From: a bacterium
GTDB lineage: Bacteria; JAJVIF01
Assembly (NCBI GenBank): GCA_022072165.1
Contig: JAJVIF010000002.1
Coordinates: forward strand, 176,221-240,220
Reading direction: 5' to 3'
DNA: 64,000 nucleotides
The position numbers and the translations under genes were made by a program. Under the pieces are notes generated by a model. It was not told the origin of the DNA, made no database searches, and worked only from the letters and a program-made list of their open reading frames with translations. This document shows, one piece after another, positions 14,087 to 55,560 of this stretch; the stretch's first letter is position 1, and every line of letters starts with the position of its first letter.

Positions 14087-14230
14087 GTTGCCTCCGAGTG
14101 GGGGGCACCGCGTGGTTCGCACACTCCCGGCACAGACCACTCAGTTTGCTTTTCGTCTAGGGACTGTCAAAACTATAGACCAATTTTCAGGTCGTTACAA
14201 CGTTTCCTCCACGCTCGAACGTCGGAGAAC

Positions 14231-16349: not shown

Positions 16350-19040
16350 CTACTCCCAGGTGGCGTACTCGATCTCGGTGTTCTCGGTGTAGGGGTTCCC
16401 CGGGTTGTACTTCGTGGTGAGCCAGATGGCGGTGTACCGCCCATCGCCATGCGAGGCGATCTGGCACATCGGCTTCCCAACGCCCGTCAGCCCTGGCTCG
16501 ATCACCTGCTGCGTGCAGGCCGCGATGGTGGGGAGGGTGTCATCCTGCAGGAAGAACTTGGCCTGCACCGGCGCGGTGGGCTCCCGGTAGGAGACCAGCA
16601 GGCAGCCGCGTCCCTGGGAGTCGAAGCTGAACTGCGTACAGGGAAGCCGACTAAAGGTCACTCCCGTGGGACTGAAAATCTGCGTGAAGGATGGACTCCA
16701 GGATCCCCCTTCATAGGTCACCAGTCCCCAGGCATCTCCGGAGGAACCGATCCGGGCACCAAGCCAGATGCGACCGTTGGGTGACCGGGCCAGAATCGGC
16801 AGGTCGTAGTCCGGACCGTCGTTGTACAGGTCCGTCCCCTCAGCAGGCCAGGACCCAGTGGATGTCTGGCTCCAGATGAGCTTGCAGAGGCTCGGCACTC
16901 CTGTTGGTCCACCGGGGAAGGGGGTGTAGAGCGACTCCCAGACCGCCAGCCATTCACCATCCGCGGTCCCCACCAGCGCATGACTTGGGACGCGAGCGCT
17001 GCCGCCTTCCGATGTCACGACATCGGCACCACCGATGCGGGTCAGGGGAGACCAGACACCCGCGTTGAGGGTGGAGAAGTACATGTCGTTTGGCAGGGCG
17101 GGTAAGCCGCTCCCGGCCGGAGGCTGATCACCCCGCGACCACTGCCCGAGGAATCCCATGGTCCCGGCGGCATTCCCGATCATCAGGCAACGATCCCATT
17201 GCCCCGGATGAATGCTCGCAGGGACAGTCGCAGGCGCACTCCAGGTCCCGCCGGATTTGCTGACGCTCTGCCGCGGGCGTCCGGCGGAGTTCAGGGTGTA
17301 CATCACATGGGTGACATTGTCCGGCCCGGTCTGGCAGGAGACATGGCCCAGTCCCCCTCCACCGGAGCTGTAGATCATCTCGGGGGTATCCCAGATGATG
17401 GGGGTCGGTGAAGGCATGAAGCTCTGGTGCCAGACCTGATACGGCAGCTGCGTAAACCAGGTCAGATGCACCCGACCATCGGGACCCACCGAGAGCGCGT
17501 TGGACGTGTTCTGAGAGGTGTCAAACAGTTCCTTCTGGCTGAACGTATTGGTCAGCCTGACAGGCGCACCCCAGGCTGCAGTTGGGAGGACCGTTACCAG
17601 CGTCGTCGCCAGATCGGTCTGCGCGTCAGCAGCGCGTACCCGCAGCGCGATGACCTTCGTGGTCTCCGATGGATAGCTGGTCGAGACCAGCGCGCCGGTG
17701 GCATCGATCTGGAACAGGCTGCCGTCATAATCGAAGTCCCATTCGAAGTCGACGATCGCGCTGCTGCCCGGCAGACTGCCGGATCCATCCAGTGAAATGA
17801 GTGCGCCGGGGGCGACCGCCTCGCCGGGACAGGCGCGACTGAGCACCGCGATCGGCGGATCACCCAGGGGTGAGAAGGTCACCTGGACCGGGAAGCACTG
17901 ATACGTGGTGTACGAGGTGATCGTCACCGGGGTCCGCAGGTCTTCCAGCAACCCGACCCCGGCTGCTGCCTGATCCGTGACAGTCACCAGCCCCCAGTAT
18001 TCGCCTTCTGCGGCATTACTGGTGTTGACGACGAAAGTGGTCGCAGTCAGGGGCGACGGGTCCTGCCCGGTCCCACTCAGAGAAAGCGTCAACGGCCCAG
18101 CAGTCACACCCGGGATCTCCAATGTCGCCGACACTACATCACTGCCAAGGGAATACCCGTGCTTCCAGTCCCAGATGTCGACTTTGTACTCCGCTGACGA
18201 TGTCGGATCACCGGCTTCCAGAGAATTCGCAAGTTCAGTCACGTTGATTTTCCAGGGGGCATTCCCCGCAAATTGTGGCAGCTCGTACTGCGGATTCTGA
18301 CGGGTCGCACGCACCGCGGACTGCCCATAGTCAGCGGTGAGATAGATACGAAAGCGGACCTGGCTCGCCGGGGTCAGCCGCAGCGCGAGGGTGGCTTCGG
18401 ATGTCATGCCGGGGAAAAGCACATTGAAACCCGCCGGCTGCTGATAGTTAAAGGGATCCGACCCCGTGTCCTCCCGCATGAGGATGTAAGGCTGGACAGG
18501 TGCGGCTGCGAAAGCGGGAGCACTGGCGGCCGTGTCGAGCCACATGCGACCGTAGCCCGCCGCATTGGTCACGAGGTCCGGCACCGTCGCGACACCAGCC
18601 AGGTTGGTGGCGGGTTCATCGGAAACGACCCAGGCTTTGACATTGAAGATCGCCAGGTCCGGGCGAATGGCAGGCGCAAAGGGATGCCGAATCCGGAAGT
18701 CGACTTCCACATCGCCGCTCCCGCTGTGTCGCAGCCCCAGCACCTCGAAGTTCCGCCCGAACATCTCTGTAAAGGCCGGAGCCAGTCCCAACTCGCTGTA
18801 GGTATCACCGATGGCGGTGGCTGCGCGATGGGGGGTCAGCGTGGCTGAAGCAGCGACCAGATCGATGCCGAGGTCGAAGCTGCTGAGCAGCGCTCCTTCC
18901 TGCAAACGCCCCTCAGCCGGTGATGCTACTGGCGGTGCTGCGGTCCCGGTGGGACTGGCCCCCCGTTCAGCGCAACTGGTCGCCAGTGCGAGGGGGATCA
19001 GCATCAGGCCCACCAGGGGCAGGGTGTGGTGGCGGGTCAT
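16350..19040 (-). CDS. array paralog 1: lipoprotein, unassigned N-module + PKD-like + Asp-box-like propeller
   Basis: Trimmed to ATG 19040 (GAGGAG 7 nt upstream). Lipobox LALATS|C. N-module blocks AAIGDTYSELGLAPAF, IRHPFAPAIRPDLAIFNVKAWVV, APVQPYILMRED, YLTADYGQSAVRATRQNPQYELPQFAGNAPWK, VDIWDWKHG and EYWGLVTVTD. PKD-like FEWDFDYDGS..ALRVRA. Strands GGTWSAP, AGVWSPL, TGSWPAE and GGSWSPS. Ends YATWE. Confidence 0.85.
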   Translation of the reverse strand: MTRHHTLPLVGLMLIPLALATSCAERGASPTGTAAPPVASPAEGRLQEGALLSSFDLGIDLVAASATLTPHRAATAIGDTYSELGLAPAFTEMFGRNFEVLGLRHSGSGDVEVDFRIRHPFAPAIRPDLAIFNVKAWVVSDEPATNLAGVATVPDLVTNAAGYGRMWLDTAASAPAFAAAPVQPYILMREDTGSDPFNYQQPAGFNVLFPGMTSEATLALRLTPASQVRFRIYLTADYGQSAVRATRQNPQYELPQFAGNAPWKINVTELANSLEAGDPTSSAEYKVDIWDWKHGYSLGSDVVSATLEIPGVTAGPLTLSLSGTGQDPSPLTATTFVVNTSNAAEGEYWGLVTVTDQAAAGVGLLEDLRTPVTITSYTTYQCFPVQVTFSPLGDPPIAVLSRACPGEAVAPGALISLDGSGSLPGSSAIVDFEWDFDYDGSLFQIDATGALVSTSYPSETTKVIALRVRAADAQTDLATTLVTVLPTAAWGAPVRLTNTFSQKELFDTSQNTSNALSVGPDGRVHLTWFTQLPYQVWHQSFMPSPTPIIWDTPEMIYSSGGGGLGHVSCQTGPDNVTHVMYTLNSAGRPRQSVSKSGGTWSAPATVPASIHPGQWDRCLMIGNAAGTMGFLGQWSRGDQPPAGSGLPALPNDMYFSTLNAGVWSPLTRIGGADVVTSEGGSARVPSHALVGTADGEWLAVWESLYTPFPGGPTGVPSLCKLIWSQTSTGSWPAEGTDLYNDGPDYDLPILARSPNGRIWLGARIGSSGDAWGLVTYEGGSWSPSFTQIFSPTGVTFSRLPCTQFSFDSQGRGCLLVSYREPTAPVQAKFFLQDDTLPTIAACTQQVIEPGLTGVGKPMCQIASHGDGRYTAIWLTTKYNPGNPYTENTEIEYATWE

Positions 19041-19117
19041 TGGTCGCTCCTCGGATAGCGCTGACAGTCCCAACGTACGGTTGGGGAGTTACAGATGCGG
19101 GACGGCAGCATGTCGGG

Positions 19118-21796
19118 CTACTGCCAGACGCTCCAGTCGATTTCTCGGGCCGTGAACGGTCCGCCGCCGTACTTGTCGGTCAGCCAGAGTGCCATGTGAC
19201 GGCCATCGGCCATCCCCAGCACCTGTTGTCCGATCCGGGCAAAGCTGCCACCCTCTACTGCCATACCAGTGATACCGCTCAGACTGCCCAACGGAGTGGT
19301 CTCAGTGAAGCGGATGTAGTTGATGTAGGTGGTGGGCTGGTTGTGGCTATGGGTGAGGACGCCCTCGCCCTGGGGATTGAACCCGAAACCGAAGTACGCC
19401 TCCGACCCCGTGGTCACCGACCGGGCGACTGAGAGCGGCGTCCAGGAGGAGCCATTGAACTGGCCCATGCTGATCGATGACTGCGTGCCGGACCCGACGG
19501 CCAGCCAGATGGTGCCGTTGGGTGATCGTGCCAGTACCGGGTTCGAATTGCGGCTGACGCCGTTGTACGCGAAGGACTGTGAGCCCCAGCTGCCGCCGGT
19601 CGTTTTGTTGTACTTCAGTCCTACGGTGTACGTAGAGGTGATCGATGTGACGCCGTTGTACTGCTGCTCCACGCCGGACCAGACAGCGAGCCATTCGTTG
19701 TCCGCAGTCCCAACGAAGTCCATGTCCTCGTCACTCAGGGTGTATGACCCGCAGGCTGTGGAGTTCAGCACAACGTAGCGATCGCCAATCTGCGTGATCG
19801 GCGCCCAGGCGGTGCCATCAAAGCTGGTGAAGTAGACCGGCATCGCCGGACCCGGAATCGCCGGGCAGACCGTACCACCACGTCGCTTGCCGGCAAAGCC
19901 CAGAGTCCCGTCGGGACGGGCCGCCAGTATGCCGCCGGTCCAGACATTCGTACCGGAGGCATAGGTCGTGATCGGCCCGACGATGCTCCAGGTGCCGTTT
20001 TCCAGCTTCGCGTGCCGGAATTCGGGATAGGCACTCGGCATCGTTGGTCCAGTGAACGATGCATGGAGCGTATCGCCGACCGCTGCCAGCGAACAGTTCC
20101 ACTGGTAGTTACTGGTGTTCAGTGTCGATGACACCAGTGTCCGGGGCTGCCAGGTGGGCGGGCACCCGCTGTACTCCTGATGGTAGTGCTCGAACGTGTA
20201 CGCGGGGAAAGTACCCGTGACTTCCGGATAGAGCACATGGACCGCCCCATCGGCGGTCTGCACCAGGTTGTGGGTCACGTTGGAACCAAAGCCCTGGTAC
20301 TGCTCATAGAGGCTGTTGTTGGTGAGCCGCTGGGTCGCGTTCCAGGTCGCACTCCCCGAGACATTGATACTGGCCGTGGTGATGTTCCAGCCCGATGGGG
20401 TGCCATCGCTGACCCGAAGCGCGACCGTCCGGGTCCCAGCGCTGGGGTACGCCTGCGCCACCAGCATCCCTGAGGCATCCACTGTGAAGTTGCTGCCGTC
20501 ATAGTCCCAGTCCCATTCGTACGCCGTGATCGGATTCGAACCGGGAGTGCTGGGCGATGCATCGAAGGTGTCGCCGATCCCCACTTTCATGTCGCCGCCA
20601 TAACAGCGACTGAAGGCAGCAGTCGGAGGCAGGCTGGTGTTGCCAACCGCGACCGGGAAGAGCTGATACGTCACATAGCTGGTGATGGTGACCGGCGAGG
20701 TGAGATTCTCCTGCAGCGCGACCCCACTGGTGGCACTGTCCGTGACTGTCACGAGCCCCCAGTAGTCACCCTCGAGGCCCCCAGCAAGATTTGTCACCAG
20801 CACAGTGCCTGTCAGCGGTGTCGGGTCGGTCCCTGTGCCACTGAGGGAGACAGTCAGCGGACTCGTGGTGACTCCCGGCACCTGCAGCGTGGCCGATGCG
20901 ACATCGCTCCCCAGCTGCTGGCCATGCTTCCAGTCCCAGATATCGACCTGGTACTGAGCGGTGGAGGCGGTCTGCCCGGCTTCCAGATTGTTAGCGAGTT
21001 CCGTCACTGCCACTTTCCAGGCGGCGTTGCCCGCAAATTTCGGCAGTTCATATTGCGGGGTCTGGCGGGTCGCCCGGACTGCAGACTGCCCATAGTCAGC
21101 GGTCAGATAGAGCCGGAGGGTGACCGCGCTGGCGTTGCTGAGCTGGAGCGACAGGGTCGCCGTCGATTCCATGCCGGGGAAGAAGACGTTGTAGCCAGCA
21201 GGATTCTGAAAATCGAACGCTCCAGCCGCAGCATCTTCCCGGAGCAGAATGTAGGGCTGGACCGGTGCAGCATTGAACCCGGGAGCTGCGGATGCCGTGT
21301 CAAGCCACATCCGGCCATAACCTGCCGCATTAGTCACGATTCCCGGGAGCGCCGAGACTCCGCCAAGATTCACCGCCGGCAGGTCGCTGACCGCCCAGCA
21401 CTTCAGGTTGAAGATGGCGAGGTCCGGACGGGCGGTTGGGGCGAAGGGATGCCGGATCCCGAGTTCCACCTCCACTTCCCCATTCGGCCCGAACTGGAAC
21501 CCGCGCACCTGGAAGTTGCGACCAAACATCGTCGTAAAGGCCGGTGCCAGCCCCAGTTCGCTGTAGGTGTCGCCGATGGCGGCAGTCGCCTTGTCAGCGG
21601 CGAGTGTCACCTGCTGGCTCACGGGATCCAGGTGCAGATCGAATCCTCCCAGCAGGCCCCCTTCACGAGGAACTCCCGGCGCGAAGGGGTCCGACCCCGT
21701 AACGGCCGCTGGTGCCAGTGGAGCGGAACCTCCCTGGCAGCCGAGAAGCAGGGTCGAGACCGCCAGGAGTCCGATGGTGGTGCTGTGAGTCCTCAT
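19118..21796 (-). CDS. array paralog 2: lipoprotein, unassigned N-module + PKD-like + Asp-box-like propeller
   Basis: ATG 21796 with GGAGG upstream. Lipobox LLLG|C. Same N-module blocks (IRHPFAPTARPDLAIFNLKCWAV, YLTADYGQSAVRATRQTPQYELPKFAGNAAWK, VDIWDWKHG, DYWGLVTVTD). PKD-like FDASPSTPGSNPITAYEWDWDYDGSNF..ALRVSDG. Strands NGTWSIV, GTAWAPI, GGSWGSQ and GSSWTPL. Ends WSVWQ. Confidence 0.88.
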   Translation of the reverse strand: MRTHSTTIGLLAVSTLLLGCQGGSAPLAPAAVTGSDPFAPGVPREGGLLGGFDLHLDPVSQQVTLAADKATAAIGDTYSELGLAPAFTTMFGRNFQVRGFQFGPNGEVEVELGIRHPFAPTARPDLAIFNLKCWAVSDLPAVNLGGVSALPGIVTNAAGYGRMWLDTASAAPGFNAAPVQPYILLREDAAAGAFDFQNPAGYNVFFPGMESTATLSLQLSNASAVTLRLYLTADYGQSAVRATRQTPQYELPKFAGNAAWKVAVTELANNLEAGQTASTAQYQVDIWDWKHGQQLGSDVASATLQVPGVTTSPLTVSLSGTGTDPTPLTGTVLVTNLAGGLEGDYWGLVTVTDSATSGVALQENLTSPVTITSYVTYQLFPVAVGNTSLPPTAAFSRCYGGDMKVGIGDTFDASPSTPGSNPITAYEWDWDYDGSNFTVDASGMLVAQAYPSAGTRTVALRVSDGTPSGWNITTASINVSGSATWNATQRLTNNSLYEQYQGFGSNVTHNLVQTADGAVHVLYPEVTGTFPAYTFEHYHQEYSGCPPTWQPRTLVSSTLNTSNYQWNCSLAAVGDTLHASFTGPTMPSAYPEFRHAKLENGTWSIVGPITTYASGTNVWTGGILAARPDGTLGFAGKRRGGTVCPAIPGPAMPVYFTSFDGTAWAPITQIGDRYVVLNSTACGSYTLSDEDMDFVGTADNEWLAVWSGVEQQYNGVTSITSTYTVGLKYNKTTGGSWGSQSFAYNGVSRNSNPVLARSPNGTIWLAVGSGTQSSISMGQFNGSSWTPLSVARSVTTGSEAYFGFGFNPQGEGVLTHSHNQPTTYINYIRFTETTPLGSLSGITGMAVEGGSFARIGQQVLGMADGRHMALWLTDKYGGGPFTAREIDWSVWQ

Positions 21797-21853
21797 GGTC
21801 TGGAGCCTCCGGCTCAGGGCAAGTGTGGTGTGGCGAAAAAAGTGGCGAACGAG

Positions 21854-24520
21854 TTACTGATAGAGCGCGGCATCCAGTTCGAAGCCGGAGAAGAACGCCC
21901 CACCGTACTTCAGGGTCGACCAGACCGCCACATAGCGGCCATCGTGCAGCCCGGCGATCATCGCGGGATACCGAAAAGTTGAAAGTGTCGGCTCCACCAG
22001 ATGCGGTGTAAAACCGGAAATGGCAGCAGGGGTGTCAGTCTGACGGAAGCGCTTGCTGTTGAACGGCACATTGCTGTTCTGGTAAGTGACGGCGAAGGTG
22101 CCCCGGCCATCGTCATCGAAATTCAGGCTGAAGTAGGGCGTACTCCCCAGTCCACCGGGCAGGACGATGGTCATATCACTGTCCCAGGTGCCGCTGGAGT
22201 AGCGGGCCAGCCCGATGGGACTGCCCGTGCTGCCAGCGCGAGCGATGAGCCACAGCGTACCGTTGGGGGAGCGTTCGAGAATCGGATGACGGTACTGTCC
22301 GGCACTGGTGTAGAGATTCGCTTCTGCCTGCCAGACCCCACCAACAGTCTGCGCCCAGGAGAGCTTGCTCGGGCCGGTGTTCTGATCGGTGAAGCCATCG
22401 AAGGGGGTGACTACCTCGTCCCAGACTGCGACCCATTCATTCGTGGCGGTCGCGGCCAGCGTGGCACCGTAGCCATACATGTGTCCGGTGTTGCCACAGG
22501 TGGGAATGTTGACCACGATGTCACCCAGGCCGATGGTGCTCACGGAGCCCCAGGACCCGCTGGTTCGTTTTACGAACTGCAACTGCCACGGAATGGCCGG
22601 AGTTCCCGGACAACTGGGCTGCGTGGTCCGCAGGACTGTCAGGACCCCCAGCGTCCCATCCGGACTCGCCGCGATCGTCGAGCCGGTGAGCCTTTCGGTG
22701 TTGTTGGTATGGGTCATCACCACTTCCTGCGTGCCCCAGCCACCGGCGGTCCGGGGGCGATAGATCAGCTGATCGCGGCTGGAGCCATCCCGCTGGTTGA
22801 GCAGCGCATGGACGGTGTTGTCGCTGGTCGCGGCGAGGGAGAACTTCCGGGTGATCTGCTGCGAGGCGGGGGTCGTGAAGAAGTTCTCCGGGGCGGTCCA
22901 GCTGCCAGCGACATCGCAGGTGCTGGGGAGCTGCATGTACCAGTACTCAGTGGCGAATGGACTGGCACTCTGCACGATGCTGAAGACCAGATGCGCGGTG
23001 CCATCAGAAGTCACGACCAGGCTGTCCGGTGACTCGGTCAGCTCGCAGAGGACTTCCTGAATGCTGTTCGTCGTGAGTCGCAGCGGTGTCTGCCAGACCG
23101 GGGGTCCTGAAACTGACACCGGCCGCACCAGCGTATGGCTGTTGCCGAAACCGTCACTCACTCGCAGCGCGGTCTGGTAGTTCCCCGCTGCCGGGAACTC
23201 GTAGTCCACGGTGGAACCAGTCGCCATGACATCGAAAGTGGGATCGATGTAGTCGAAGTCCCACTCGTAGCTGACAATCGGATGCGTGCCGGGCGTGCTG
23301 AGGCTGCCATCGAAGTGGGTGTCGGTCTCGGCCTTAATGGAAAGGAAATTGCACGCGGTGAACTCTGCGGTCGGGGGCACCGCCGTGGCGCCGGCGACAC
23401 TCACCGGGAAACATTGCCAGGTGGAGTAGTTGGTAATGGTGACCGGCTCGAAGTCTTCGTTCAGCCCGACACCGCTGGTCGCCTGATCCGTCACACTCAC
23501 CAGCCCCCAGTAGTCGCCGGCGGTCACCGACGGGTCACAGAATGCCGAGATGGTGCCTGTGAGGGGGGTCGGGTCGGTCCCGGTCCCGGTCAGCGCCAGC
23601 GTCACCGGAGCAGCCATCACGCCCGGGATATCCAGGGTCGCGTCGATGACATCGCTCCCCAGCGACTCCCCATGCTTCCAGTCCCAGATGTCGACCTGGT
23701 AATCCGCGGAGGAGAGCTGCCCCGCCTCGAAAAAGTTGTTGAGTTCCGTGACTGCGATCTTCCAGGGGGCGTTGCCCGCGAACTTCGGCAATTCGTATTG
23801 CGGATTCTGACGGGTCGCCCGGACCGCGGACTGCCCGTAGTCGGCGGTGAGGTAGATCCGCAACTGGACAGAGGTCGCGGTGCCGAGATCAAGCGCGACC
23901 GTATCAACGCTGGTCATGCCGGGGAAAAAAACGTTGTATCCCGCAGGATTCAGGTGCGAGAACGCGCCGGCCGTGGGGTCTTCGCGGAGCACGACATAGG
24001 GCTGCACGACCGCCGCGCTGAACGCCGGCGAAGTGACCGCAGTCTCGGCCCAGAGGCGACCATAGCCATCGGCATTCGTGACCAGGCCGGGGGCCACCTG
24101 AACACCTCCCAGATTCGTGGCTGGCTGACTGCTCACCACCCAGCACTTGAGGTTGAAGATCGCGAGGTCCGGACGGGTGGCCGCACTAAAGGGATGTGTG
24201 GTCTCAAAATCGACTTCAATGGTGGTCGGCCCGGTCGAGCGAAGCCCCCGGACCCGGAAGTTTTTCCCGAAGCGTTCCTGCAACGCGGGTCCGAGTCCAA
24301 TCTCACTGAAGGTGTCGCCGATGGCAGCAGCGGTCGCATCTGGCAGGAGCGCGACTGTTCCAGCCTCCCGGTCGATGTCCAGCACGAATCCGCCAAGGAA
24401 GCCCCCTTCCATCGGCAATTGCAGCTGGGGCGCCCGCAAGGAGGATGTTGTCGGTGTCGACGCGGCACAGGCGGTGAGCGCCAGGGCCAACACGGGACTA
24501 CAGCGAAGCCAAGAGCGCAT
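21854..24520 (-). CDS. array paralog 3: lipoprotein, unassigned N-module + PKD-like + Asp-box-like propeller
   Basis: Trimmed to ATG 24520 (GGAGG upstream; MRSWLRCSPVLALALTA|C). Blocks TTHPFSAATRPDLAIFNLKCWVV, YLTADYGQSAVRATRQNPQYELPKFAGNAPWK, VDIWDWKHG and DYWGLVSVTD. PKD-like FDGSLSTPGTHPIVSYEWDFDY. Ends AALYQ. Confidence 0.85.
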   Translation of the reverse strand: MRSWLRCSPVLALALTACAASTPTTSSLRAPQLQLPMEGGFLGGFVLDIDREAGTVALLPDATAAAIGDTFSEIGLGPALQERFGKNFRVRGLRSTGPTTIEVDFETTHPFSAATRPDLAIFNLKCWVVSSQPATNLGGVQVAPGLVTNADGYGRLWAETAVTSPAFSAAVVQPYVVLREDPTAGAFSHLNPAGYNVFFPGMTSVDTVALDLGTATSVQLRIYLTADYGQSAVRATRQNPQYELPKFAGNAPWKIAVTELNNFFEAGQLSSADYQVDIWDWKHGESLGSDVIDATLDIPGVMAAPVTLALTGTGTDPTPLTGTISAFCDPSVTAGDYWGLVSVTDQATSGVGLNEDFEPVTITNYSTWQCFPVSVAGATAVPPTAEFTACNFLSIKAETDTHFDGSLSTPGTHPIVSYEWDFDYIDPTFDVMATGSTVDYEFPAAGNYQTALRVSDGFGNSHTLVRPVSVSGPPVWQTPLRLTTNSIQEVLCELTESPDSLVVTSDGTAHLVFSIVQSASPFATEYWYMQLPSTCDVAGSWTAPENFFTTPASQQITRKFSLAATSDNTVHALLNQRDGSSRDQLIYRPRTAGGWGTQEVVMTHTNNTERLTGSTIAASPDGTLGVLTVLRTTQPSCPGTPAIPWQLQFVKRTSGSWGSVSTIGLGDIVVNIPTCGNTGHMYGYGATLAATATNEWVAVWDEVVTPFDGFTDQNTGPSKLSWAQTVGGVWQAEANLYTSAGQYRHPILERSPNGTLWLIARAGSTGSPIGLARYSSGTWDSDMTIVLPGGLGSTPYFSLNFDDDGRGTFAVTYQNSNVPFNSKRFRQTDTPAAISGFTPHLVEPTLSTFRYPAMIAGLHDGRYVAVWSTLKYGGAFFSGFELDAALYQ

Positions 24521-24584
24521 GTGCGCCTCCTGCAGGGAGTGACATTGAGGACGTGAACCGGGGAACGGCGTCGGAACCCCAATG

Positions 24585-24618
24585 GTAACAAAACGAGCCG
24601 GGAAGTATCCCGGCTCGT
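24585..24618 (-). terminator. rho-independent terminator-like hairpin after array paralog 4
   Basis: Perfect 10-11 bp stem (CGAGCCGGGA / TCCCGGCTCG) with a 4-nt loop. On the minus strand it is followed by TTTTGTT. It lies about 25 nt past the stop codon at 24644. Confidence 0.65.
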
Positions 24619-24643
24619 GACTGCAGTTTGTCAGCAATTTGGG

Positions 24644-27283
24644 CTATTCCCAGAACAGGGCTTCCAGCTCCTGGCCTTCAGTAAACGCCCCGAAGCGGGT
24701 CGACTGGAACACCATCGCCCAGCGTCGATCCGCCAGACGGACTGTTACCGGGAAGCGCTGCAGGATCCCAGTCGCAGACGGCACCATCGTGGTGTTCGGC
24801 ATGGCTGCAATCGTAGCGATGGAGTCGGATTGCTGGAAGATCTTGCTGGTCATGGGCGTGCCGAAGTTTGAGCCGCCGGACATCAGCATCCCCTGCCCAT
24901 CCGGGGCGAAGGCCAGGTACGGCTGTGCGCTCCCGAGAATGCCAGTCAACGCGGTGGTGGAGGCGGTCCAGACAGTGCCGTCATAGGTCATCAGCCGGAT
25001 GTTGGTCAGGTCGCAGTGCGTCAGCCAGATGGTTCCATTCGGGCTGGTCGCCATGACGATCCGGAAGGAGTCAACCGGAACGCTGGTCAGAACGGACTCC
25101 GAACCCCAGACGCCCCCGGTGGTCCGGTTCCACTTGGTCATACAGGCACTGCTGACCGCGGAACCACCCAGGTGCGGGGTCTTGAGGGTATCCCAGGCCG
25201 TGATCCACTCGTTGGAGAGAGTCGAAGTCAGGGAGGCCGACAGGATGCGACCGCTCCAGCCTCCACCTCCGGACTGCGATGTCACATAAGACGTTGTGCC
25301 GATCAGTTCCTGCGGCTGCCAAACTCCCCCGACGGTCCGGATGGCATACATCTGCCCCGACACCGCCGGGATGCCGCCACCATTGACCGCAGCCGGGTCT
25401 TGTGGTGGCTGGAAGTGCGCGACATAGCCGAGTTCATCGGCATAGTTGCGGGCAATCCAGCCGTAGTTCCAGCCCCCGGTTCCGGGGGTGGAGGTGATGT
25501 TCACCGGGGCCGACCAGACGCCTCCGGTGTTGTGGATGTACCGGACGTTGTTCACACTCGCCAGGAACGACACATGGAGCCGGTCATCGCTGGTGATCGC
25601 CATCCCCACCGGGAAGACGCCACCACCGCCTGATGTGAAAATCTCGGTGGGAGCAGACCAGTCCGAGGAGCAGGGCGCGAGGGTCTGGTGGAAGATACTG
25701 TACGGCGACCCGGCGCGGTAATGAATCAGATGCGCGGTGCCGGTGCTGTCGATGCCAATCACCGGCGATGTCCGGGACTGATCTTCCCAGCGGTTCCAGT
25801 AGGTGTCGTTGGTGATCCGGATCGGCGTGGTGGACCAGGAGGGGGGGCCGGTGATCGCCAGCAGCGAGCTGGCGATGTCGAATCCCGCCGGACTCCCATC
25901 ACTCACCCGCAGCGCGACAGTGGGGGTCCCCACTGCACTGAACGACTGGGTCGCGATGACACCCGTGGCATCGACCGTGAAGTTGCTGCCGTCGTAATCC
26001 CAGTCCCATTCGTAAGAGACGATCGGATTGGTGCCCGGCACGCTGCTGGAGGCATCGAAAGTTTCGATGATGCCGATGGAGAGGTCTCCCCCCAAACAGC
26101 GAGTGAAAGCGGCGGTCGGCGGCTCGGCCACATCCTCCACCGACACATCAAAGACCTGATAGGTCACATAGCTGCCAAAGCTGACGGGCGTGGTGAGATT
26201 CTCTTCGAGCCCGACTCCTTGATTCGAGTCGGTGACCGTCACCAGCCCGAAGTAGTCCCCTTCACCGGCCGAGGCTCCATTCGTGATGAGGGTCGAGGCA
26301 GTGAGTGGGGTCGGGTCGCTGCCGGTTCCGCTGAGACTCAGGGTCACCGGCGCGGAGGTCACCCCCGGCACCTGCAGTGTGGCAGAAGCAACATCACTCC
26401 CGAGTCCCAGGCCATGTTTCCAGTCCCAGATGTCGACCTGGTACTGCGCGGTCGAACTCGGCTGCCCGGCCTGCAGATCATTCGCAAGTTCGGTCACCGC
26501 GACTTTCCACGCGGCATTGCCGGCGAACTTCGGCAGGTCGTACTGTGGATTCTGGCGAGTCGCCCGGACCGCTGACTGCCCATAGTCCGCCGTGAGATAG
26601 AGCCGCGCCTGGAACGTGTTGCCCGTGGAGAGGGTCAGCGCGAGGGTATCGATGCTGGTCTGGCCGGGGAAGAGGACGTTGAAGCCGGCGGGCGACTGAT
26701 AGTTAAACGGCGCGGATGAAGGGTCCTCCCGCAGGATCACATAGGGCTGGACCGGGGCGGCGGTGTAGTCCGGCTGGCTTCCTGGATGCGTCACGAGCCA
26801 GGTGTTGGAATACCCATCGGCGTTGGCCAGGACTCCGGGGGCGGCACTGACACCACTCAGATTCACCGGAGCCCGGTCTGTGACCACGAAGCACTTCACA
26901 TTGAAGATCCCCAGGTCCGGGCGATTCGCCGGGCTGAAGGGATGCGTGATTTGTACATCGACTTCGATGGTGTCCGGCGCGGGACGCCGGACCGCGATCA
27001 CTCTGAAGTTGTCGCCGAATGTTTTGTTGAACGCCGGGGTAAGTCCAAGTTCGCTGTAGTCATCGCCGATGGCGGCGGACTGACGTACGGGGGTGAGCTC
27101 GGCATGATTCGTCGTCAGATCGATCATCAGATCGGCGGCGAACAGCGGCCCGGTGGAAGGGTCCTGTGCCAGTGCCAGCGCTGCCGACTGCTCCTGGGCT
27201 GCCGGAGAAACCGGGGTCGCACTCCGCTGACAGGAAAGCAGGAAGAGGGCAGGCACCATGAGGGCCAGAGCTGGGGTACGCAT
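24644..27283 (-). CDS. array paralog 4: lipoprotein, unassigned N-module + PKD-like + Asp-box-like propeller
   Basis: ATG 27283 with AAGGAG upstream. Lipobox FLLS|C. Blocks ITHPFSPANRPDLGIFNVKCFVV, YLTADYGQSAVRATRQNPQYDLPKFAGNAAWK, VDIWDWKHG and DYFGLVTVTD. PKD-like FDASSSVPGTNPIVSYEWDWDYDGSNF. Strands GGVWSAP, GGVWQPQ, GGVWGSE and GTVWTAS. Ends ALFWE. Confidence 0.88.
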   Translation of the reverse strand: MRTPALALMVPALFLLSCQRSATPVSPAAQEQSAALALAQDPSTGPLFAADLMIDLTTNHAELTPVRQSAAIGDDYSELGLTPAFNKTFGDNFRVIAVRRPAPDTIEVDVQITHPFSPANRPDLGIFNVKCFVVTDRAPVNLSGVSAAPGVLANADGYSNTWLVTHPGSQPDYTAAPVQPYVILREDPSSAPFNYQSPAGFNVLFPGQTSIDTLALTLSTGNTFQARLYLTADYGQSAVRATRQNPQYDLPKFAGNAAWKVAVTELANDLQAGQPSSTAQYQVDIWDWKHGLGLGSDVASATLQVPGVTSAPVTLSLSGTGSDPTPLTASTLITNGASAGEGDYFGLVTVTDSNQGVGLEENLTTPVSFGSYVTYQVFDVSVEDVAEPPTAAFTRCLGGDLSIGIIETFDASSSVPGTNPIVSYEWDWDYDGSNFTVDATGVIATQSFSAVGTPTVALRVSDGSPAGFDIASSLLAITGPPSWSTTPIRITNDTYWNRWEDQSRTSPVIGIDSTGTAHLIHYRAGSPYSIFHQTLAPCSSDWSAPTEIFTSGGGGVFPVGMAITSDDRLHVSFLASVNNVRYIHNTGGVWSAPVNITSTPGTGGWNYGWIARNYADELGYVAHFQPPQDPAAVNGGGIPAVSGQMYAIRTVGGVWQPQELIGTTSYVTSQSGGGGWSGRILSASLTSTLSNEWITAWDTLKTPHLGGSAVSSACMTKWNRTTGGVWGSESVLTSVPVDSFRIVMATSPNGTIWLTHCDLTNIRLMTYDGTVWTASTTALTGILGSAQPYLAFAPDGQGMLMSGGSNFGTPMTSKIFQQSDSIATIAAMPNTTMVPSATGILQRFPVTVRLADRRWAMVFQSTRFGAFTEGQELEALFWE
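25876..27283. repeat. about 1.4 kb direct repeat, copy A (5' part of paralog 4)
   Basis: Aligns by eye, colinearly, with 28659..30066 at an offset of about 2783 nt. Even the antisense shadow ORFs are shared (MMRVEAVSGVGSLPVPLRLRVTGAEVTPGTC at 26283 and 29066). Boundaries are approximate. Confidence 0.8.
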
Positions 27284-27423
27284 TCGGGACTCCTTCGCAG
27301 GACGCGGAGATGCTCAAGGGACGACAGAGCGTTGGATGGCTCCATCTTACTGCGAATCTTGATGCCACGACCAGCAGAAGGCCGCTTGTGGCCTCGAACC
27401 GTCGGTAGCGGGGACAGTCAGAC

Positions 27424-30066
27424 TTACTGCCAGAACGAGCTTTCGAGCTCCATACCGCTCTGCCAGGCACCGTAGGTTTCGCCCTCCCAGAGGGTTACCC
27501 AGCGGCCATGACCGAGGGAACCGACCTGCGGGAAGAAGCGTCGCCCAGTCCCGGCGGCCAGGACTGTCAGGTCCGGCGAGGCGGCGATGGCGGCTGGTGT
27601 GTCGGTCTGGAGGAAGCGCTTTGCCCGGACCACCTGTCCGGTGGAAGCCACGGAACTGGTGACGAGCATCCCAGCTCCAGTCGCCTGATCAAAGGCAATC
27701 TGGAAATGCCCGGAGCCGCTCACCGAGTGAATCAGGGTCAGGGTCGGACTCCAGGCCGCGCCATCGTAGGTCGCCAACCGGACCTGAGCGGAGGTTTCTA
27801 CGCCCATGAACAGTGTCCCGCTCGGAGCGCGGCGCAGATGTGGCCGGTCATGCAACGACAGGGCGGTGTAGAGCGATGCCGGAGCCTGCCAGGTGCCGCT
27901 GTTAGTACGTGCCCACATGACATTGGAACTGGAAGAGACCGTACCCGCTCCCAGGAACGGATTCTTGAGGTTGGACCAGGCCGCGACCCAGTCGCTGCCG
28001 CTGGTCCCCTCGAGGGTCAGACTCGGGACAGACCCCTGTGAGTGATTGAGCTTGTGGTCCATCGCCCCGATCTGCTGGAGGGCGGTCCAGCTCCCAGAGA
28101 CATAGCGTGTGAAGTAAATCGGCGACGGGGGCTCGGGGATGCCATCCGTGGGGCCGCCACCACTGGCCGATGGCAACTCCCGCAACAGCGCGAAGCCCAG
28201 CTGCCCCGATCCATTCACCGCCAGATTGGGGGTAGACCAGTACCCCGGTCCAACGTTGGTCGTAATCGGCACCATGGCCGACCAGGTCCCATTGGTCTCC
28301 CGGGCCATCCACCCCTGCTCGGTGCCGTTGTAGGTCCCGGTCACATGCAGGCGATCATCGGGTCCGATGGCGAGACTGATGGGAACCCAGAGCTGATTCC
28401 CGATCGTGTGAATCTGCTGAGCCGCGGTCCAGGTGCTGGTGCAGGGGTCCAGGGACTGGTAGTACATGGTGAAATCGTAGAGCGGTGCGACACTGCCGTA
28501 GTCGTAGTAGACGATGTGCACCACGTTATTGGAGTCGGTCACCATCCCGTTCCCGATTTCGCTGTAGTCCCCGAACTGATCCCAGAAGCTGTTGTTGGTG
28601 ACCCGCATCGGCGTCCGCCAGGAGGCAGTCGGATTGATCGCCATGATGGTCGTGGCGATGTCCCAGCCGGTAGGCGTGCCATCACTGACCCGGAGTGCGA
28701 CGGTCGGCGTTCCTGCGGCGCTGAACGGATGGGTCGCGGTGATACCCATGGCATCGACCGTGAAGTTGCTGCCGTCGTAATCCCAGTCCCATTCGTAGCT
28801 CGTGATGGCGTTGGTGCCAGGTGTGCTGCCTGACGCATCGAACGTCTCCCCGATGCCCGTCCCCAGGTCCCCGCCGATGCAGCGCGTGATCGCGGCGGTC
28901 GGCGGCACGCCGACAACTTCCACTGCGACAGGAAAGACCTGATAGGTCACATAGCTGCCGAAACTGACGGGCGTGGTGAGATTCTCTTCGAGCCCGACTC
29001 CCTGATTCGAGTCGGTGACGGTCACCAGCCCCCAATAATCGCCTTCACTGGACGAGGCTCCATTCGTGATGAGGGTCGAAGCGGTCAGCGGGGTCGGGTC
29101 ACTCCCGGTCCCGCTGAGACTCAGGGTCACCGGCGCGGAGGTCACGCCCGGGACCTGCAGAGTGGCGGATGCGACATCGCTCCCGAGGCCCTGCCCATGC
29201 TTCCAGTCCCAGATGTCCACCTGGTACTGCGCGGTGGAGGCAGGCTGCCCGGCCTGCAGGTCGTTCGCAAGCTCGGTCACCGCGACCTTCCATGCGGCGT
29301 TGCCGGCGAACTTCGGCAGGTCGTACTGCGGCGTCTGACGAGTCGCCCGGACCGCAGACTGCCCATAGTCCGCCGTCAGATAGAGCCGCGCCTGGAAGGT
29401 ATTGCCCGTGGTGAGGGTCAGTGCGAGGGTGTCGATGCTGGTCTGGCCGGGGAAGAGGACATTGAAGCCAGCGGGCGACTGATAGCTAAACGGAGCGGAG
29501 GAGGGGTCTTCCCGCAGGATCACATAGGGCTGAACCGGGGCGGCGGTGAACTCCGGCTGGCTCCCGGGATGGGTCGCGAGCCAGGTGTTGGAGTACCCAT
29601 CGACATTGGCCAAAACGCCCGGTGCAATGCTGACGCCACTGAGATTCGCAGGTGTCCGGTCAGTCACCACGAAGCACTTCACATTGAAGATCCCCAGGTC
29701 CGGGCGACTCGCCGGACTGAAGGGATGCGTAATCTGCACATCGACTTCGATCGTGCCTGGCGCGGGGCGTCGGACCGCCACGACCCTGAAGTTGTTGCCG
29801 AAGGTTTTGGTGAACGCCGGAGTCAATCCAAGCTCGCTGTAGTCATCGCCAATGGCGGCGGACTGACGTACCGGGGTCAGTTCGGCGTGATTCGTCGTCA
29901 GGTCGATCATCAGATCGGCGGCGAACAGCGGCCCGGTCGCCGGATCCTGCGCCAGCGTCGGAGCTGCTGATTGCTCCTGGGCTGCCGGAGCAACCGGTGT
30001 CGCGCTTCGCTGACAGGAGAGCAGAAAGAGTCCGGGCAGTAGCAATGCCAGCGAGAGGATGCGCAT
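27424..30066 (-). CDS. array paralog 5: lipoprotein, unassigned N-module + PKD-like + Asp-box-like propeller
   Basis: Trimmed to ATG 30066 (MRILSLALLLPGLFLLS|C). The N-terminal 470 aa or so are nearly identical to paralog 4, and the C-terminal half is diverged. Strands NGTWSAM, SGSWTAL, SGTWQAP and GAAWSPT. Ends SSFWQ. Confidence 0.87.
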   Translation of the reverse strand: MRILSLALLLPGLFLLSCQRSATPVAPAAQEQSAAPTLAQDPATGPLFAADLMIDLTTNHAELTPVRQSAAIGDDYSELGLTPAFTKTFGNNFRVVAVRRPAPGTIEVDVQITHPFSPASRPDLGIFNVKCFVVTDRTPANLSGVSIAPGVLANVDGYSNTWLATHPGSQPEFTAAPVQPYVILREDPSSAPFSYQSPAGFNVLFPGQTSIDTLALTLTTGNTFQARLYLTADYGQSAVRATRQTPQYDLPKFAGNAAWKVAVTELANDLQAGQPASTAQYQVDIWDWKHGQGLGSDVASATLQVPGVTSAPVTLSLSGTGSDPTPLTASTLITNGASSSEGDYWGLVTVTDSNQGVGLEENLTTPVSFGSYVTYQVFPVAVEVVGVPPTAAITRCIGGDLGTGIGETFDASGSTPGTNAITSYEWDWDYDGSNFTVDAMGITATHPFSAAGTPTVALRVSDGTPTGWDIATTIMAINPTASWRTPMRVTNNSFWDQFGDYSEIGNGMVTDSNNVVHIVYYDYGSVAPLYDFTMYYQSLDPCTSTWTAAQQIHTIGNQLWVPISLAIGPDDRLHVTGTYNGTEQGWMARETNGTWSAMVPITTNVGPGYWSTPNLAVNGSGQLGFALLRELPSASGGGPTDGIPEPPSPIYFTRYVSGSWTALQQIGAMDHKLNHSQGSVPSLTLEGTSGSDWVAAWSNLKNPFLGAGTVSSSSNVMWARTNSGTWQAPASLYTALSLHDRPHLRRAPSGTLFMGVETSAQVRLATYDGAAWSPTLTLIHSVSGSGHFQIAFDQATGAGMLVTSSVASTGQVVRAKRFLQTDTPAAIAASPDLTVLAAGTGRRFFPQVGSLGHGRWVTLWEGETYGAWQSGMELESSFWQ
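28659..30066. repeat. about 1.4 kb direct repeat, copy B (5' part of paralog 5)
   Basis: See copy A. Similarity decays just after the PKD-like domain and within the signal-peptide codons. Confidence 0.8.
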
Positions 30067-30152: not shown

Positions 30153-30181
30153 AGTCCCTGTCAGTTGTGCTGACAGGGACT
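30153..30181 (-). terminator. perfect 12-bp hairpin between the small secreted-protein gene and the paralog array
   Basis: AGTCCCTGTCAG-ttgtg-CTGACAGGGACT. On the minus strand it is followed by TTCTCAT (weak U-tract). It lies about 28 nt downstream of the stop at 30209. It could be a terminator or an RNA-stability/regulatory element. Confidence 0.45.
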
Positions 30182-30208
30182 GTATTCCGTACGTTTTGGT
30201 GCAGAGGC

Positions 30209-30682
30209 TTAGATTTTGATATCGATGATGGCGCTGACCGCCACCCCCTGGACCCGCCTGATGTTGCTCGGATTCTCATTGGAGACCGGCACCATGGCCC
30301 GGATCCGGATCCCTTTCCTGAAGTCCTTTTCCAGTTGCACGACCGCTTTCACTTTCGCCACTGCCGCTGTCGGGCCTGTCACCTGCGCCGCCCCGACATA
30401 GCCCCCATCGGGTGAGAGGATGATGACGACCTTGGTGGAGGCGTTGGTTTCCGCGTCGTTGTTGTCCAGCAGCTGATTGATAGCCCGATTGATCTCCGGG
30501 CCGTACTCCTGCACGACCAGAAGGATCCCGCCGACTTTGAGGGCATCACCAAGATCGACCCCCAGGATTTTGGGGAGGCTGACGACAACATCGACGGGGA
30601 CCGCATCCGGGAGCGGTGCCGCCTTCACAGGGACAGTGCCGGCGAGCAGAGTCAGCAGGACGAGGGTGAGTGTCAGACGCAT
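30209..30682 (-). CDS. hypothetical small secreted protein (157 aa)
   Basis: Track ORF (308 aa) trimmed to ATG 30682, with GGAGG 7 nt upstream and signal peptide MRLTLTLVLLTLLAGTVPVKA. No family recognised. Confidence 0.65.
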   Translation of the reverse strand: MRLTLTLVLLTLLAGTVPVKAAPLPDAVPVDVVVSLPKILGVDLGDALKVGGILLVVQEYGPEINRAINQLLDNNDAETNASTKVVIILSPDGGYVGAAQVTGPTAAVAKVKAVVQLEKDFRKGIRIRAMVPVSNENPSNIRRVQGVAVSAIIDIKI

Positions 30683-30784: not shown

Positions 30785-31402
30785 ATGAGCGGCGTACACT
30801 CCCCCCTTATGGCCGGGGCGCGTCGCGATTACTACACGCTGCTGGGGGTCCGTCCGGACGCCACCGCACCGGAAATCCGGGCGGCCTTTCTGGCGCTCGC
30901 CCGGGCCTGGCATCCCGACAAGGCGACCAATGAAGATCGCCCCGCTGCTGAAGCTCGCTTTCGGGAACTGACCGAAGCGTATGAAACGCTGTCTGATCCG
31001 GCGCGTCGGCGCGACTACGACACCCGACGTCGGCTGGAGCAGGTCTGGAAGCCCCCGCCAGCCCCATCCGGACTCTGGTCGCAGACACGAGAGAGGGTGG
31101 TCCAGCGCTGGGGACTGGAGCGGGTACCCTGGCATGGCTGGCTGGTGCTCGGACCGGTCATGCTGGGGGTGGCGGCGGTCATCGCAGCCCAGTTTTTCTT
31201 CTATTACGTCTTCGTCTACGGGACACTTATCGCTGTCCCCCTCATCGCTGCGTGGTACGCCTGGCTCCTCTGGAAGCCCCTGGCGCTGATAGTCCTCGCG
31301 CCGACTTTCTGGCTCTGGGGCTTTTTGTTACAGGGGCTGTATCGGAACTGGCGACGCGAAGAGGCGGACCGGACGGCCCCCCGCTACCGGGAGTCGCTTT
31401 GA
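30785..31402 (+). CDS. membrane-anchored J-domain (DnaJ-like) protein
   Basis: J domain DYYTLLGV..IRAAFLALARAWHPDK..AYETLSDP..R..YD, followed by about three TM segments. Confidence 0.85.
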   Translation: MSGVHSPLMAGARRDYYTLLGVRPDATAPEIRAAFLALARAWHPDKATNEDRPAAEARFRELTEAYETLSDPARRRDYDTRRRLEQVWKPPPAPSGLWSQTRERVVQRWGLERVPWHGWLVLGPVMLGVAAVIAAQFFFYYVFVYGTLIAVPLIAAWYAWLLWKPLALIVLAPTFWLWGFLLQGLYRNWRREEADRTAPRYRESL

Positions 31403-31415: not shown

Positions 31416-32834
31416 TTAACGACGCACAGGACCCGGCTGTGCCAGAGGCTGACGAATGGTGATGATGCGCTGCCCATCCGTGCCATATCCCACCAGCAGG
31501 AACTCATTGGACCGGGTGCGGTAGTAGAAGTAGTCGCCCGGCGAGCGCTCGGTGGGCGAAGAGATCGACATGGCGTAGCGCCCGGCGAGCAGGTTGGGGA
31601 ATCCGACATGGGCAAAGCCCAGCAGTTCCAGCTGCGACACCGCGCTGGGGAGATAGCCATGCTCGTTGTGGAAGAGTTCCAGCAGTTTCGCGATCTGGAA
31701 GACCATGCGACGGGTCTGCTGCTCAGCCGGGGTCCACGCCCCTTCGCCGAGCTGTCCCATCGCTGAAACTCCGGGCCGCAGCGGCGCGGTCTCTACTTTG
31801 AGTCGTCGGACCGGCCCGTTTGTCGGAGTCGCAAGCACCACCCCCGTGGTCGGCGTCCCGCGCTCATACGCCAGGCCCCCTGGCTGTCGGCTGTTCATGG
31901 GATGCCAGATGCCCCCAGCGACTGGATCGCGCAGGACCAGCAACAAGTGTCCCGCTTCCGCCAGGGCTTCCAGAGTGGGGGGCAACTCGCCCTTTTCGGA
32001 GCGATAACTGAGCAGACTCGCAATCAGATTACGGCTGTTCATGTCCAGGAGCTGATTTGGTCGGGAATCGAGACCCGAGAGTCCGGCAGCCCGACTCAAG
32101 GTTAGTTCCCGGCGACTCTCTACAGGGCCAGACAGAGCAGCATCCGGGGTCGGAGGATTTTCTGCAGCAGCGTTTGACGCCATCTTGTTCGCGGCATCTC
32201 CCGGGACCGTCTCTTCGATGGCATCGTGATCGTCAGGGTCGACTTCGAGTGCCGCCATGGCCTGATGCGCGAGGTCGGCATCGGCCCCACCATCACTGAG
32301 GGCTTCACGCTGCTGGTTCAGGACCGCCGGTGGAATCCCCAGCGTATCCCGCAACTGTTGTTCCTGCGCCCGGGGCATCACGCCCTGATCCGGTAGGAAC
32401 TGACGGAACCGGATGATCGCCTCGTTTTCGAGCATGAGGGCGTTCTGGTCCGCCATCGATTCAAAGAACCCGGTCAGGCGGATCACCACTTCCCCCCCCC
32501 GAAAGCGCAGGAGGTCGCTGACAAAGAGATCCGCCCGCTCCCCTTCCAGCGGCAGGGCCAAAGAGGTCGCAATCGCCTGGGGGTCGCCGGTCAGGGCACT
32601 CTCTCGGGTGAGAACCCAAAAATCAAGGAAGTCGAGGAGGATGCGATTCCGGTCCGAGAGGATGGTGCCCCGGGGGAGCGTGAGAGTGAACTCCAGCCAG
32701 TGCCCCGCGCGATTCTGCCACCGGGCACTCCGGTACTCCGTAAAGGCGTAGGTCGGCTGGTGCACCTCGGCGAAAGCCAGCACCGACGGGAGCCACAGGA
32801 GGAGCGTGAGCCAGCAGAGTCGCCATCGATGCAT
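31416..32834 (-). CDS. hypothetical secreted protein (downstream of the ECF sigma / putative anti-sigma pair)
   Basis: Trimmed to ATG 32834 (AGGAGG upstream). Signal peptide MHRWRLCWLTLLLWLPSVLAFA. No family recognised. Confidence 0.7.
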   Translation of the reverse strand: MHRWRLCWLTLLLWLPSVLAFAEVHQPTYAFTEYRSARWQNRAGHWLEFTLTLPRGTILSDRNRILLDFLDFWVLTRESALTGDPQAIATSLALPLEGERADLFVSDLLRFRGGEVVIRLTGFFESMADQNALMLENEAIIRFRQFLPDQGVMPRAQEQQLRDTLGIPPAVLNQQREALSDGGADADLAHQAMAALEVDPDDHDAIEETVPGDAANKMASNAAAENPPTPDAALSGPVESRRELTLSRAAGLSGLDSRPNQLLDMNSRNLIASLLSYRSEKGELPPTLEALAEAGHLLLVLRDPVAGGIWHPMNSRQPGGLAYERGTPTTGVVLATPTNGPVRRLKVETAPLRPGVSAMGQLGEGAWTPAEQQTRRMVFQIAKLLELFHNEHGYLPSAVSQLELLGFAHVGFPNLLAGRYAMSISSPTERSPGDYFYYRTRSNEFLLVGYGTDGQRIITIRQPLAQPGPVRR

Positions 32835-32963
32835 GTCGCTGCCTCCTGTGTGGGATGTCGTAGTCACTGACCGGTGTCGGCCGCTAGTGTAGCGACCCCA
32901 TGCCGGACCCGCTCCATCTACTTGGGATGCGGTTGGAACGGTGCCAGTTCAGGGAAGGGAGAT

Positions 32964-49932: not shown

Positions 49933-50040
49933 GAGACTCGCGCAAGGCTCCTTGAGGACCGGGCATGACAACGCCCTCCGCCAGTACCGGAGGGCGTCAG
50001 TGATTCTACCAGTCCTGCCGGTGCCGGTTAGCCGGTGATG

Positions 50041-55437: not shown

Positions 55438-55560
55438 ACCCCGCATCCCCGGGCGAAACTGCTGCCCTGTCGACAACATGCCCTCTTTTGTTCCACGGGG
55501 GAACGCCAATCGTTGTCCCTTGCCCTCGCACAACCGTGGGGCGTATCCTTGCATCCTCCT

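Follow-up and report, generated by a model that had tools for sequence, protein, structure and literature searches.

Organisation of the array

The 64-kb stretch of the bacterial contig JAJVIF010000002.1 analysed here (the window) carries on its minus strand, at 16350–30066, five open reading frames (ORFs) arranged head-to-tail and encoding predicted lipoproteins of 879–896 aa, hereafter copies A to E. ORF calling returned exactly the coordinates given in a preliminary description of this DNA, which had reported five consecutive minus-strand paralogous genes for proteins of about 880–900 aa. The copies were delimited with ATG starts and are listed, together with other features of the window, in Table 1. 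The GC content across the array is 0.63–0.64, the same as in the remainder of the window.

Behind the signal peptide each protein consists of an N-terminal module (N-module) of about 345 aa, a PKD domain and a C-terminal module (C-module) of about 400 aa. This three-part architecture and the N-module motif blocks quoted in the preliminary description were reproduced in a five-way alignment, in which many of the blocks are invariant in all five copies. At the N-termini a short, basic n-region leads into a hydrophobic core, with a lipobox cysteine after it (LATS/C, LLLG/C, LTA/C, LLS/C and LLS/C). The lipoprotein calls were made by pattern inspection against the lipobox [LVI][ASTVI][GAS]C and agree with the lipobox signal peptides previously assigned to all five copies. 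A Shine-Dalgarno sequence had also been claimed for every gene; Shine-Dalgarno-like GAGGAG, GGAGG, AGGAGG and AAGGAG were indeed found ahead of A–D, but copy E is preceded only by a weaker GAGG.

In tblastn comparisons the N-modules of A–E matched one another with E values from 1e-121 to 0, and the paralogy of the five genes is judged to lie far beyond chance. Identity among the copies differs by module, amounting to 58–67% in the N-module (93.5% between D and E), 33–72% in the PKD domain and 24–33% in the C-module. Direct DNA repeats with a period of 2745–2783 nt are confined to the N-module portion. Because no two copies exceed 88% DNA identity, and because head-to-tail arrays of the A–E subfamily turn up again on five independent contigs that belong to other assemblies and samples (L082 with at least three copies, L083 with at least four, L119, L120 and L123), we regard the array as genuine and conserved and not as an artefact of assembly, an origin which the preliminary description had considered. 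The nearest relatives of the subfamily come from a few metagenome-assembled genomes (MAGs) and metagenomes. Copy C is 99.8% identical to a database protein (P0007) and copy D is identical to another (P0005).

Table 1. Positions of the array copies, their modules and other features in the window.
Feature	Position	Strand	Description	Evidence
Copy A	16350-19040	-	896 aa; signal peptide + Cys23 18972-19040; N-module 17856-18893; PKD 17592-17855; propeller 16353-17591	
Copy B	19118-21796	-	892 aa; signal peptide + Cys20 21737-21796; N-module 20621-21661; PKD 20363-20620; propeller 19121-20362	
Copy C	21854-24520	-	888 aa; signal peptide + Cys18 24467-24520; N-module 23369-24403; PKD 23114-23368; propeller 21857-23113	
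Copy D	24644-27283	-	879 aa; signal peptide + Cys18 27230-27283; N-module 26114-27154; PKD 25856-26113; propeller 24647-25855	
Copy E	27424-30066	-	880 aa; signal peptide + Cys18 30013-30066; N-module 28897-29937; PKD 28639-28896; propeller 27427-28638	
Terminator-like hairpin (strong)	24593-24618	-	11-bp stem then T-run; separates the stop codon of D from the start of C	
Hairpin	~30153-30182		follows the gene of the small secreted protein	
Small secreted protein	30209-30682	-	157 aa; signal peptide, no lipobox; immediately upstream of E	no Pfam match
Paralog F	36197-38803	+	lipobox; N-module ~30% identical to A-E; FG-GAP β-propeller	tblastn; Pfam FG-GAP E=1e-34; N-module hidden Markov model E=8e-107
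Cobalamin riboswitch	55547-55722	+	directly upstream of G	Rfam RF00174, 78 bits, E=1.6e-17
Paralog G	55774-57996	+	lipobox LLMS/C; N-module; unannotated C-terminal domain (~57100-57990)	
Lipoprotein with YVTN-type β-propeller	57993-59123	+	lipobox FIAG/C; same operon as G	profile against PDB 1l0q, E=1.6e-7
888-aa lipoprotein	11474-14140	-	lipobox SLG/C; He_PIG Ig-like domains	
J-domain (DnaJ) protein	14231-14752	-	hydrophobic C-terminal segment	
J-domain (DnaJ) protein	30785-31402	+	hydrophobic C-terminal segment	
483-aa protein	31416-32867	-	apparent N-terminal hydrophobic leader	no Pfam match
Alanyl-tRNA synthetase	47245-49971	-		

The N-terminal module

The N-module lies directly after the lipid anchor. 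The preliminary description had spoken of this conserved module as a 'head'; its position reverses the picture, making it the membrane-proximal base and the variable propeller of the C-module the distal head.

Pfam and NCBIfam profile searches with the N-module returned no match at E≤1, and comparison with PDB sequences, using profiles of 5, 11 and 27 sequences as well as a single sequence, gave a best E value of 0.99. An AlphaFold2 model of the module from copy B (mean predicted local distance difference test score, pLDDT, 74.5; predicted template modelling score, pTM, 0.79) is all-β and consists of generic immunoglobulin (Ig)-like β-sandwiches. Foldseek searches of the PDB with this model found only generic tandem Ig, FnIII and E-set matches at TM-scores of about 0.2, including RbmA, transglutaminase C-terminal barrels, SoxZ and the dimerisation domain of sulfite dehydrogenase, and a search of viral structures (BFVD) returned nothing specific. 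The earlier statement that the N-module belongs to no known family thus stands for all of these searches, none of which gave a confident match. We regard the N-module as a bona fide, undescribed protein family.

Diverse family members share only about 26–40% overall identity with the N-modules of the window. Across 138 family representatives, residues H71, P72, R78, D80, G114, R199, P202, Y204, P207, D243, S252, N291 and D308 (numbering of the copy B module) are 94–100% conserved. A PCxDC pair is present in 112 of the 138 and missing from A–E. The most conserved motifs, AAIGDxYSELGL and TADYGQSAVRATRQxPQY, sit in low-confidence loops of the model.

Such conservation could mean that the N-module is itself the functional core, a novel enzyme or a binder of a common ligand, to which the propellers merely serve as targeting devices in the manner of carbohydrate-binding modules on glycoside hydrolases. 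Nine polar residues conserved at 89–100% in the 138 representatives, which otherwise share only about 25–35% identity, a ratio of non-synonymous to synonymous substitution (dN/dS) of 0.09–0.16 and the location of the conserved motifs in modelled loops, outside the core strands, all fit this explanation. The predicted fold, however, comprises Ig-like/E-set β-sandwiches alone, with no enzyme-like relative, and no enzyme family was matched by profile. Where tandem Ig-like domains meet, as in cadherin and Big domains, conserved Asp and Asn typically mark structural Ca2+ sites, and those of the N-module may be of this kind. Some family members, moreover, already carry an enzyme as their head (Reprolysin_5). 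We therefore consider a role as functional core unlikely.

The PKD spacer and the C-terminal propeller

The only Pfam match of A–E is PKD_4 at about residues 385–480; an NCBIfam scan of the five proteins gave none. When tested with PF18911/PF00801, copies C (41.8 bits) and E (31.5) score above the gathering cut-off of 27, and B (26.8), A (23.8) and D (23.0) fall just under it at the homologous position. In profile searches of the PDB the region matched the PKD domains of collagenases. The PKD-like Ig domain of the preliminary description is hence borne out.

For the C-module, a 15-sequence profile matched solved sialidases in the PDB, namely Pseudomonas aeruginosa PA2794 (2w38, E=1.6e-9; 3h6j, E=6.4e-9), 8gn6 and 8feb. 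The AlphaFold2 model of the C-module from copy B (pLDDT 86.9, pTM 0.89) contains about 29 β-strands in groups of four, suggesting a propeller of six to seven blades. Among the structures found with it by Foldseek were Dfer_1899 (5hx0, uncharacterised), the seven-bladed Photorhabdus lectins, sialidases, KDNases and a GH145 enzyme (BT3686), with E values of about 1e-9 and probability 1.0 for the sialidases and KDNases. The best superposition was obtained with the lectins PLL/PHL (5c9l, 5mxe, 6rfz; TM-score 0.56–0.59 normalised to the query and 0.66–0.70 to the target). These are non-catalytic, sugar-binding seven-bladed propellers; they differ from the C-module in being soluble, single-domain proteins and share only 13–14% sequence identity with it. 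The C-module is thus confidently predicted to adopt a sialidase/lectin-like β-propeller fold.

The resemblance to the BNR propellers of GH33 sialidases (PA2794; Micromonospora viridifaciens, 1eur) extends to the β-propeller fold, the periodic G-x-W strands and the profile match. It does not extend to two sequence hallmarks of these enzymes. None of the five proteins contains a FRIP-like motif ([FYWLIV]R[IVL]P), which in sialidases bears the first catalytic Arg, and the strict Asp-box S-x-D-x-G-x-T-W is absent from all of them, with zero to two very loose matches per protein. The number of strands would also suggest seven rather than six blades, and TM-scores to the sialidases are about 0.5. 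With FRIP motif and Asp-boxes both missing, the term 'sialidase' is valid for the fold alone, and for the fold the degenerate sialidase/BNR-type propeller proposed in the preliminary description is right. Membership in catalytic GH33 is not supported by the sequences.

The propellers might nevertheless work as exo-glycosidases, be it as divergent sialidases/KDNases of the GH33 type or as enzymes of the GH145 type, so that the array would encode a lipid-anchored, glycan-degrading set on an Ig-like stalk. The profile matches to solved sialidases, the recovery of sialidases, KDNases and BT3686 by Foldseek and the Pfam BNR_2 matches of some relatives all point in this direction, as do two Arg, two His and one Glu among the residues invariant in the five C-modules. 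GH33 sialidases conserve an Arg triad, a Tyr/Glu nucleophile pair and an Asp acid/base; no Tyr or Asp is among the invariant residues of the five C-modules, and the alignments are blade-shifted, which precludes mapping residue by residue. Across 15 C-module homologs, near-invariance is limited to W, H, W, G and F. Together with the missing sialidase motifs and the fact that the top TM-scores are to non-catalytic lectins, this makes a glycosidase set improbable.

Size and distribution of the N-module family

An exhaustive HMMER search of 1.84 billion representatives detected the N-module in 857 metagenomic cluster representatives at E≤1e-3 and in 416 at E≤1e-30. Word-indexed homology searches returned merely 4 and 11 relatives, all named 'hypothetical protein [bacterium]', and the source annotations of family proteins read only 'hypothetical protein' or 'PKD domain-containing protein'. 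It typically begins close to the N-terminus (median offset 56 residues), with other sequence, 471 residues at the median, behind it. A lipobox-like Cys was recognised, again by pattern inspection, in 122 of the 148 family members that begin with Met. In 53 sampled members the parts behind the module included PKD (17), BNR_2 (4), PQQ_2 (3), an ACSF4-type propeller, LVIVD, FG-GAP, a PorZ-like propeller, Reprolysin_5 and a β-helix; members on contig L001 carry SBBP propellers.

Only two of 185,579 species-representative genomes were found to contain the family, the unclassified MAGs AUK107 and SRR22302362_metabat2_46; at least 20 ORFs carry the N-module in the former and at least 27 in the latter, commonly two or three in tandem. 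Examples of such runs, with SBBP or other propeller heads, are located at L001 3091–8342, L090 6506–16185 and L107 7694–17159. Tandem duplication appears to be a general mode of expansion of the family. The survey of copy number and synteny proposed in the preliminary description showed an expanded family as well as recurring arrays.

In the window itself there are seven N-module copies within 64 kb, namely A–E and two further paralogs, F and G. The array had been put forward as an undescribed system; it is instead one local grouping within a far larger family whose members are dispersed, and no self-contained system.

The source of the window is probably a deep, uncharacterised lineage. TolC-like OEP genes are present in both expanded MAGs, which suggests a diderm envelope. 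The alanyl-tRNA synthetase encoded in the window is about 35–43% identical to those of the 80 GTDB species representatives listed.

Divergence of the copies

Over the N-module and PKD domain, copies D and E share about 88% DNA identity, which falls abruptly to 45–50% at the junction between PKD domain and propeller. Synonymous divergence (dS) is 0.46 in the N-modules of this pair (dN/dS 0.09) and saturated in their propellers (dS >1.2). The disparity in dS between N-module plus PKD domain and propeller therefore indicates that gene conversion affected part of the genes or that a head was exchanged. The N-module is under strong purifying selection (dN/dS 0.09–0.16).

The propeller of copy A has an ortholog on L118 (73% identity, dN/dS 0.15) and that of copy D one on L119 (60% identity, dN/dS 0.24). 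Because the orthologs are 60–73% identical, compared with about 30% for paralogous propellers inside the array, and because their dN/dS is 0.15–0.24, we take the heads to be ancient, specialised and under purifying selection, not rapidly diversifying.

These data bear on the idea that the five genes form a stock of adhesins, or of surface proteins that vary antigenically, diversifying in an arms race against hosts, prey or phages. Several tandem copies whose C-terminal regions diverge strongly would be expected of such a repertoire, and the D/E mosaic attests to recombination. The conservation of heads between genomes, however, is not that of fast-evolving proteins, and no invertible repeats, invertible promoters, simple-sequence tracts or silent cassettes, the signs of phase variation, were found at the array. 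All copies are full-length with their own start signals, and the sources of the family are unclassified environmental MAGs and metagenomic contigs, with no host-associated isolates among them. An arms-race repertoire is hence very unlikely.

Paralogs F and G and a cobalamin-associated branch

Paralog F joins the N-module to an FG-GAP propeller of the integrin-α-like type and, unlike A–E, keeps the PCxxC pair. Paralog G is preceded by a cobalamin riboswitch and shares its operon with a lipoprotein bearing a YVTN-type propeller. The riboswitch is kept in front of the G orthologs on L116 and L117, and the order of riboswitch, G and YVTN-propeller lipoprotein is conserved in three genomes (the window, 55547–59123 (+); L116, 5809–9281; L117, 470–3382). 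No TonB-dependent receptor is adjacent to the G operon in this lineage.

The C-terminal domain of G, with the motif GDPYAD...GPDFIVFENAF...VEVSxxGxDW, has widespread, mostly stand-alone homologs, including Sorangium proteins annotated as 'cell surface protein'. It has no Pfam match, DUF4465 included, and a three-sequence profile found no match among PDB sequences. Four loci of stand-alone homologs were sampled (L126, 2501–3520; L127, 1064–1951; L128, 2501–3304; L129, 2501–3727). Three of the four lie behind a cobalamin riboswitch, and in three the gene is directly upstream of a TonB-dependent receptor of the size of BtuB. Because of this riboswitch and receptor context of G and its homologs, the head that G carries on its N-module very probably serves to capture corrinoids, and the domain is a candidate for a new corrinoid-binding family. 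The G operon as a whole looks like a B12-capture operon analogous to BtuH/BtuG. Homology of its proteins to BtuG or BtuH was considered and is not detectable by sequence.

The partner of G is also relevant to a structural role of the family, in which the proteins would be S-layer-like envelope components whose N-module self-assembles or binds the wall as a lattice while the propellers decorate its outside. The YVTN propeller resembles a module of an archaeal S-layer protein (1l0q), and many copies per genome with a conserved base and variable outer domains would suit such a lattice. An S-layer, however, normally consists of a single abundant protein or a few, and not of 20 or more paralogs that bear different heads, and one branch of the family is controlled by a nutrient riboswitch. 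We consider a lattice function quite unlikely.

Proposed role of the array

The reading that we favour, and hold to be about an even call, is that A–E are anciently diverged, lineage-specific, lipid-anchored envelope proteins of a 'constant base plus exchangeable head' design that form a specialised ligand-capture repertoire. The proteins would be exported by the Sec pathway and lipidated at the lipobox Cys, so that the N-module adjoins the membrane. This module, pictured as tandem Ig-like β-sandwiches with a near-invariant polar set of H71, R78, D80, R199, Y204, D243, S252, N291 and D308, would act as a common stalk or docking module, either touching a single partner common to the family (an envelope polymer, a transporter or the N-module itself) or stiffened by bound ions. 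With the PKD domain as a spacer, the distal propeller would bind a ligand, most likely a carbohydrate, with a specificity particular to each copy and probably without catalysis. Together the five genes would supply a set of proteins that capture or recognise nutrients or polymers.

In favour of this we count that the nearest structures of the modelled head are sugar-binding or sugar-cleaving propellers, that one and the same N-module, placed behind a lipobox, bears many different heads across the family, and that the heads of the array are old and specialised while the N-module is strongly constrained. Because G lies under a cobalamin riboswitch and homologs of its head stand beside BtuB-like receptors, the N-module would carry a nutrient-capture head in at least one branch.

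Surface exposure, ligand binding by the propeller, docking through the N-module and the kind of ligand are inferred. Several points weigh against a capture repertoire. In a diderm cell the lipoproteins may face the periplasm instead of the outside. No conserved partner gene or transporter was found in the neighbourhoods of family genes. Loss of the FRIP motif and Asp-boxes is no proof of a non-catalytic propeller, as GH145 and other propeller glycosidases use different residues. The near-invariant H, R, D, Y, S and N residues of the N-module would equally fit a catalytic or ligand-binding site, and its two most conserved motifs lie in loops modelled with low confidence.

Of the systems compared, those of surface B12 capture in Bacteroides are closest in design. 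BtuH2 contains Ig-like PKD domains and a C-terminal B12-binding domain (PMC8941943), and BtuG is a β-propeller lipoprotein (PMC6143338). The proteins described here share with these a lipid anchor combined with an Ig-like/PKD stalk and a C-terminal ligand-binding head (as in BtuH2) or with a β-propeller (as in BtuG), modular and heterogeneously distributed heads, and loci under cobalamin riboswitches, and the pair of G and the YVTN-propeller lipoprotein mirrors their arrangement. They differ in that no sequence relationship was detected and that the base is a 345-aa undescribed module, not plain PKD repeats; furthermore, A–E are not controlled by a riboswitch and no TonB-dependent transporter is adjacent here. 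What is new is hence the N-module domain family; the architecture of lipid anchor, Ig-like stalk and binding head is already known, for example from BtuH/BtuG.

Conserved anchoring or sorting modules on diverse cargo exist in several forms, such as S-layer homology (SLH) triplets, the C-terminal domains of the type IX secretion system (T9SS) and the N-terminal Ig-like domain of SusE/F. The N-module resembles these in that one conserved module is found on many unrelated domains within a lineage and in high paralog numbers. It differs in its N-terminal position, its length of about 345 aa, its pairing with a lipid anchor and its unrelated sequence, and no cognate machinery or polymer was identified for it.

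A more far-reaching possibility, which we put forward tentatively, is that the N-module is the signature of an undescribed, lineage-specific display or docking platform of the envelope, in which a base of three β-sandwiches with an invariant polar site would join dozens of capture heads to one common partner, a transporter or an envelope polymer. The heads would include lectin-like propellers, peptidases and the new cobalamin-associated domain. In function the platform would parallel Sus/Btu lipoproteins, SLH modules or T9SS C-terminal domains, while being evolutionarily unrelated to them, and, if real, it would define nutrient acquisition in a still-unclassified bacterial lineage.

The N-module family is sizeable and has neither a Pfam or NCBIfam model nor a solved relative; its definition would improve the annotation of uncultured lineages and provide a handle on their envelope biology. 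The design of a constant base with a swappable head also lends itself to the discovery of ligand-binding domains. One branch already points to an unannotated domain that in several phyla is found in tight association with cobalamin riboswitches and with receptors resembling BtuB, a candidate new corrinoid-binding class.

Neighbouring genes

The small secreted protein encoded immediately upstream of E is 59% identical to the 165-aa product of a gene located between family copies on L083 (6489–6986) and is, as judged from this match, a conserved neighbour of the family. A hairpin follows its gene.

The 888-aa lipoprotein encoded beyond copy A was considered as a sixth copy and rejected, since it is without an N-module and has no significant C-module match; it contains He_PIG Ig-like domains together with an unassigned C-terminal region of about 430 aa. 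Two small J-domain proteins with hydrophobic C-terminal segments flank the array, and the gene of the 483-aa protein with an apparent hydrophobic leader lies two genes upstream of it.

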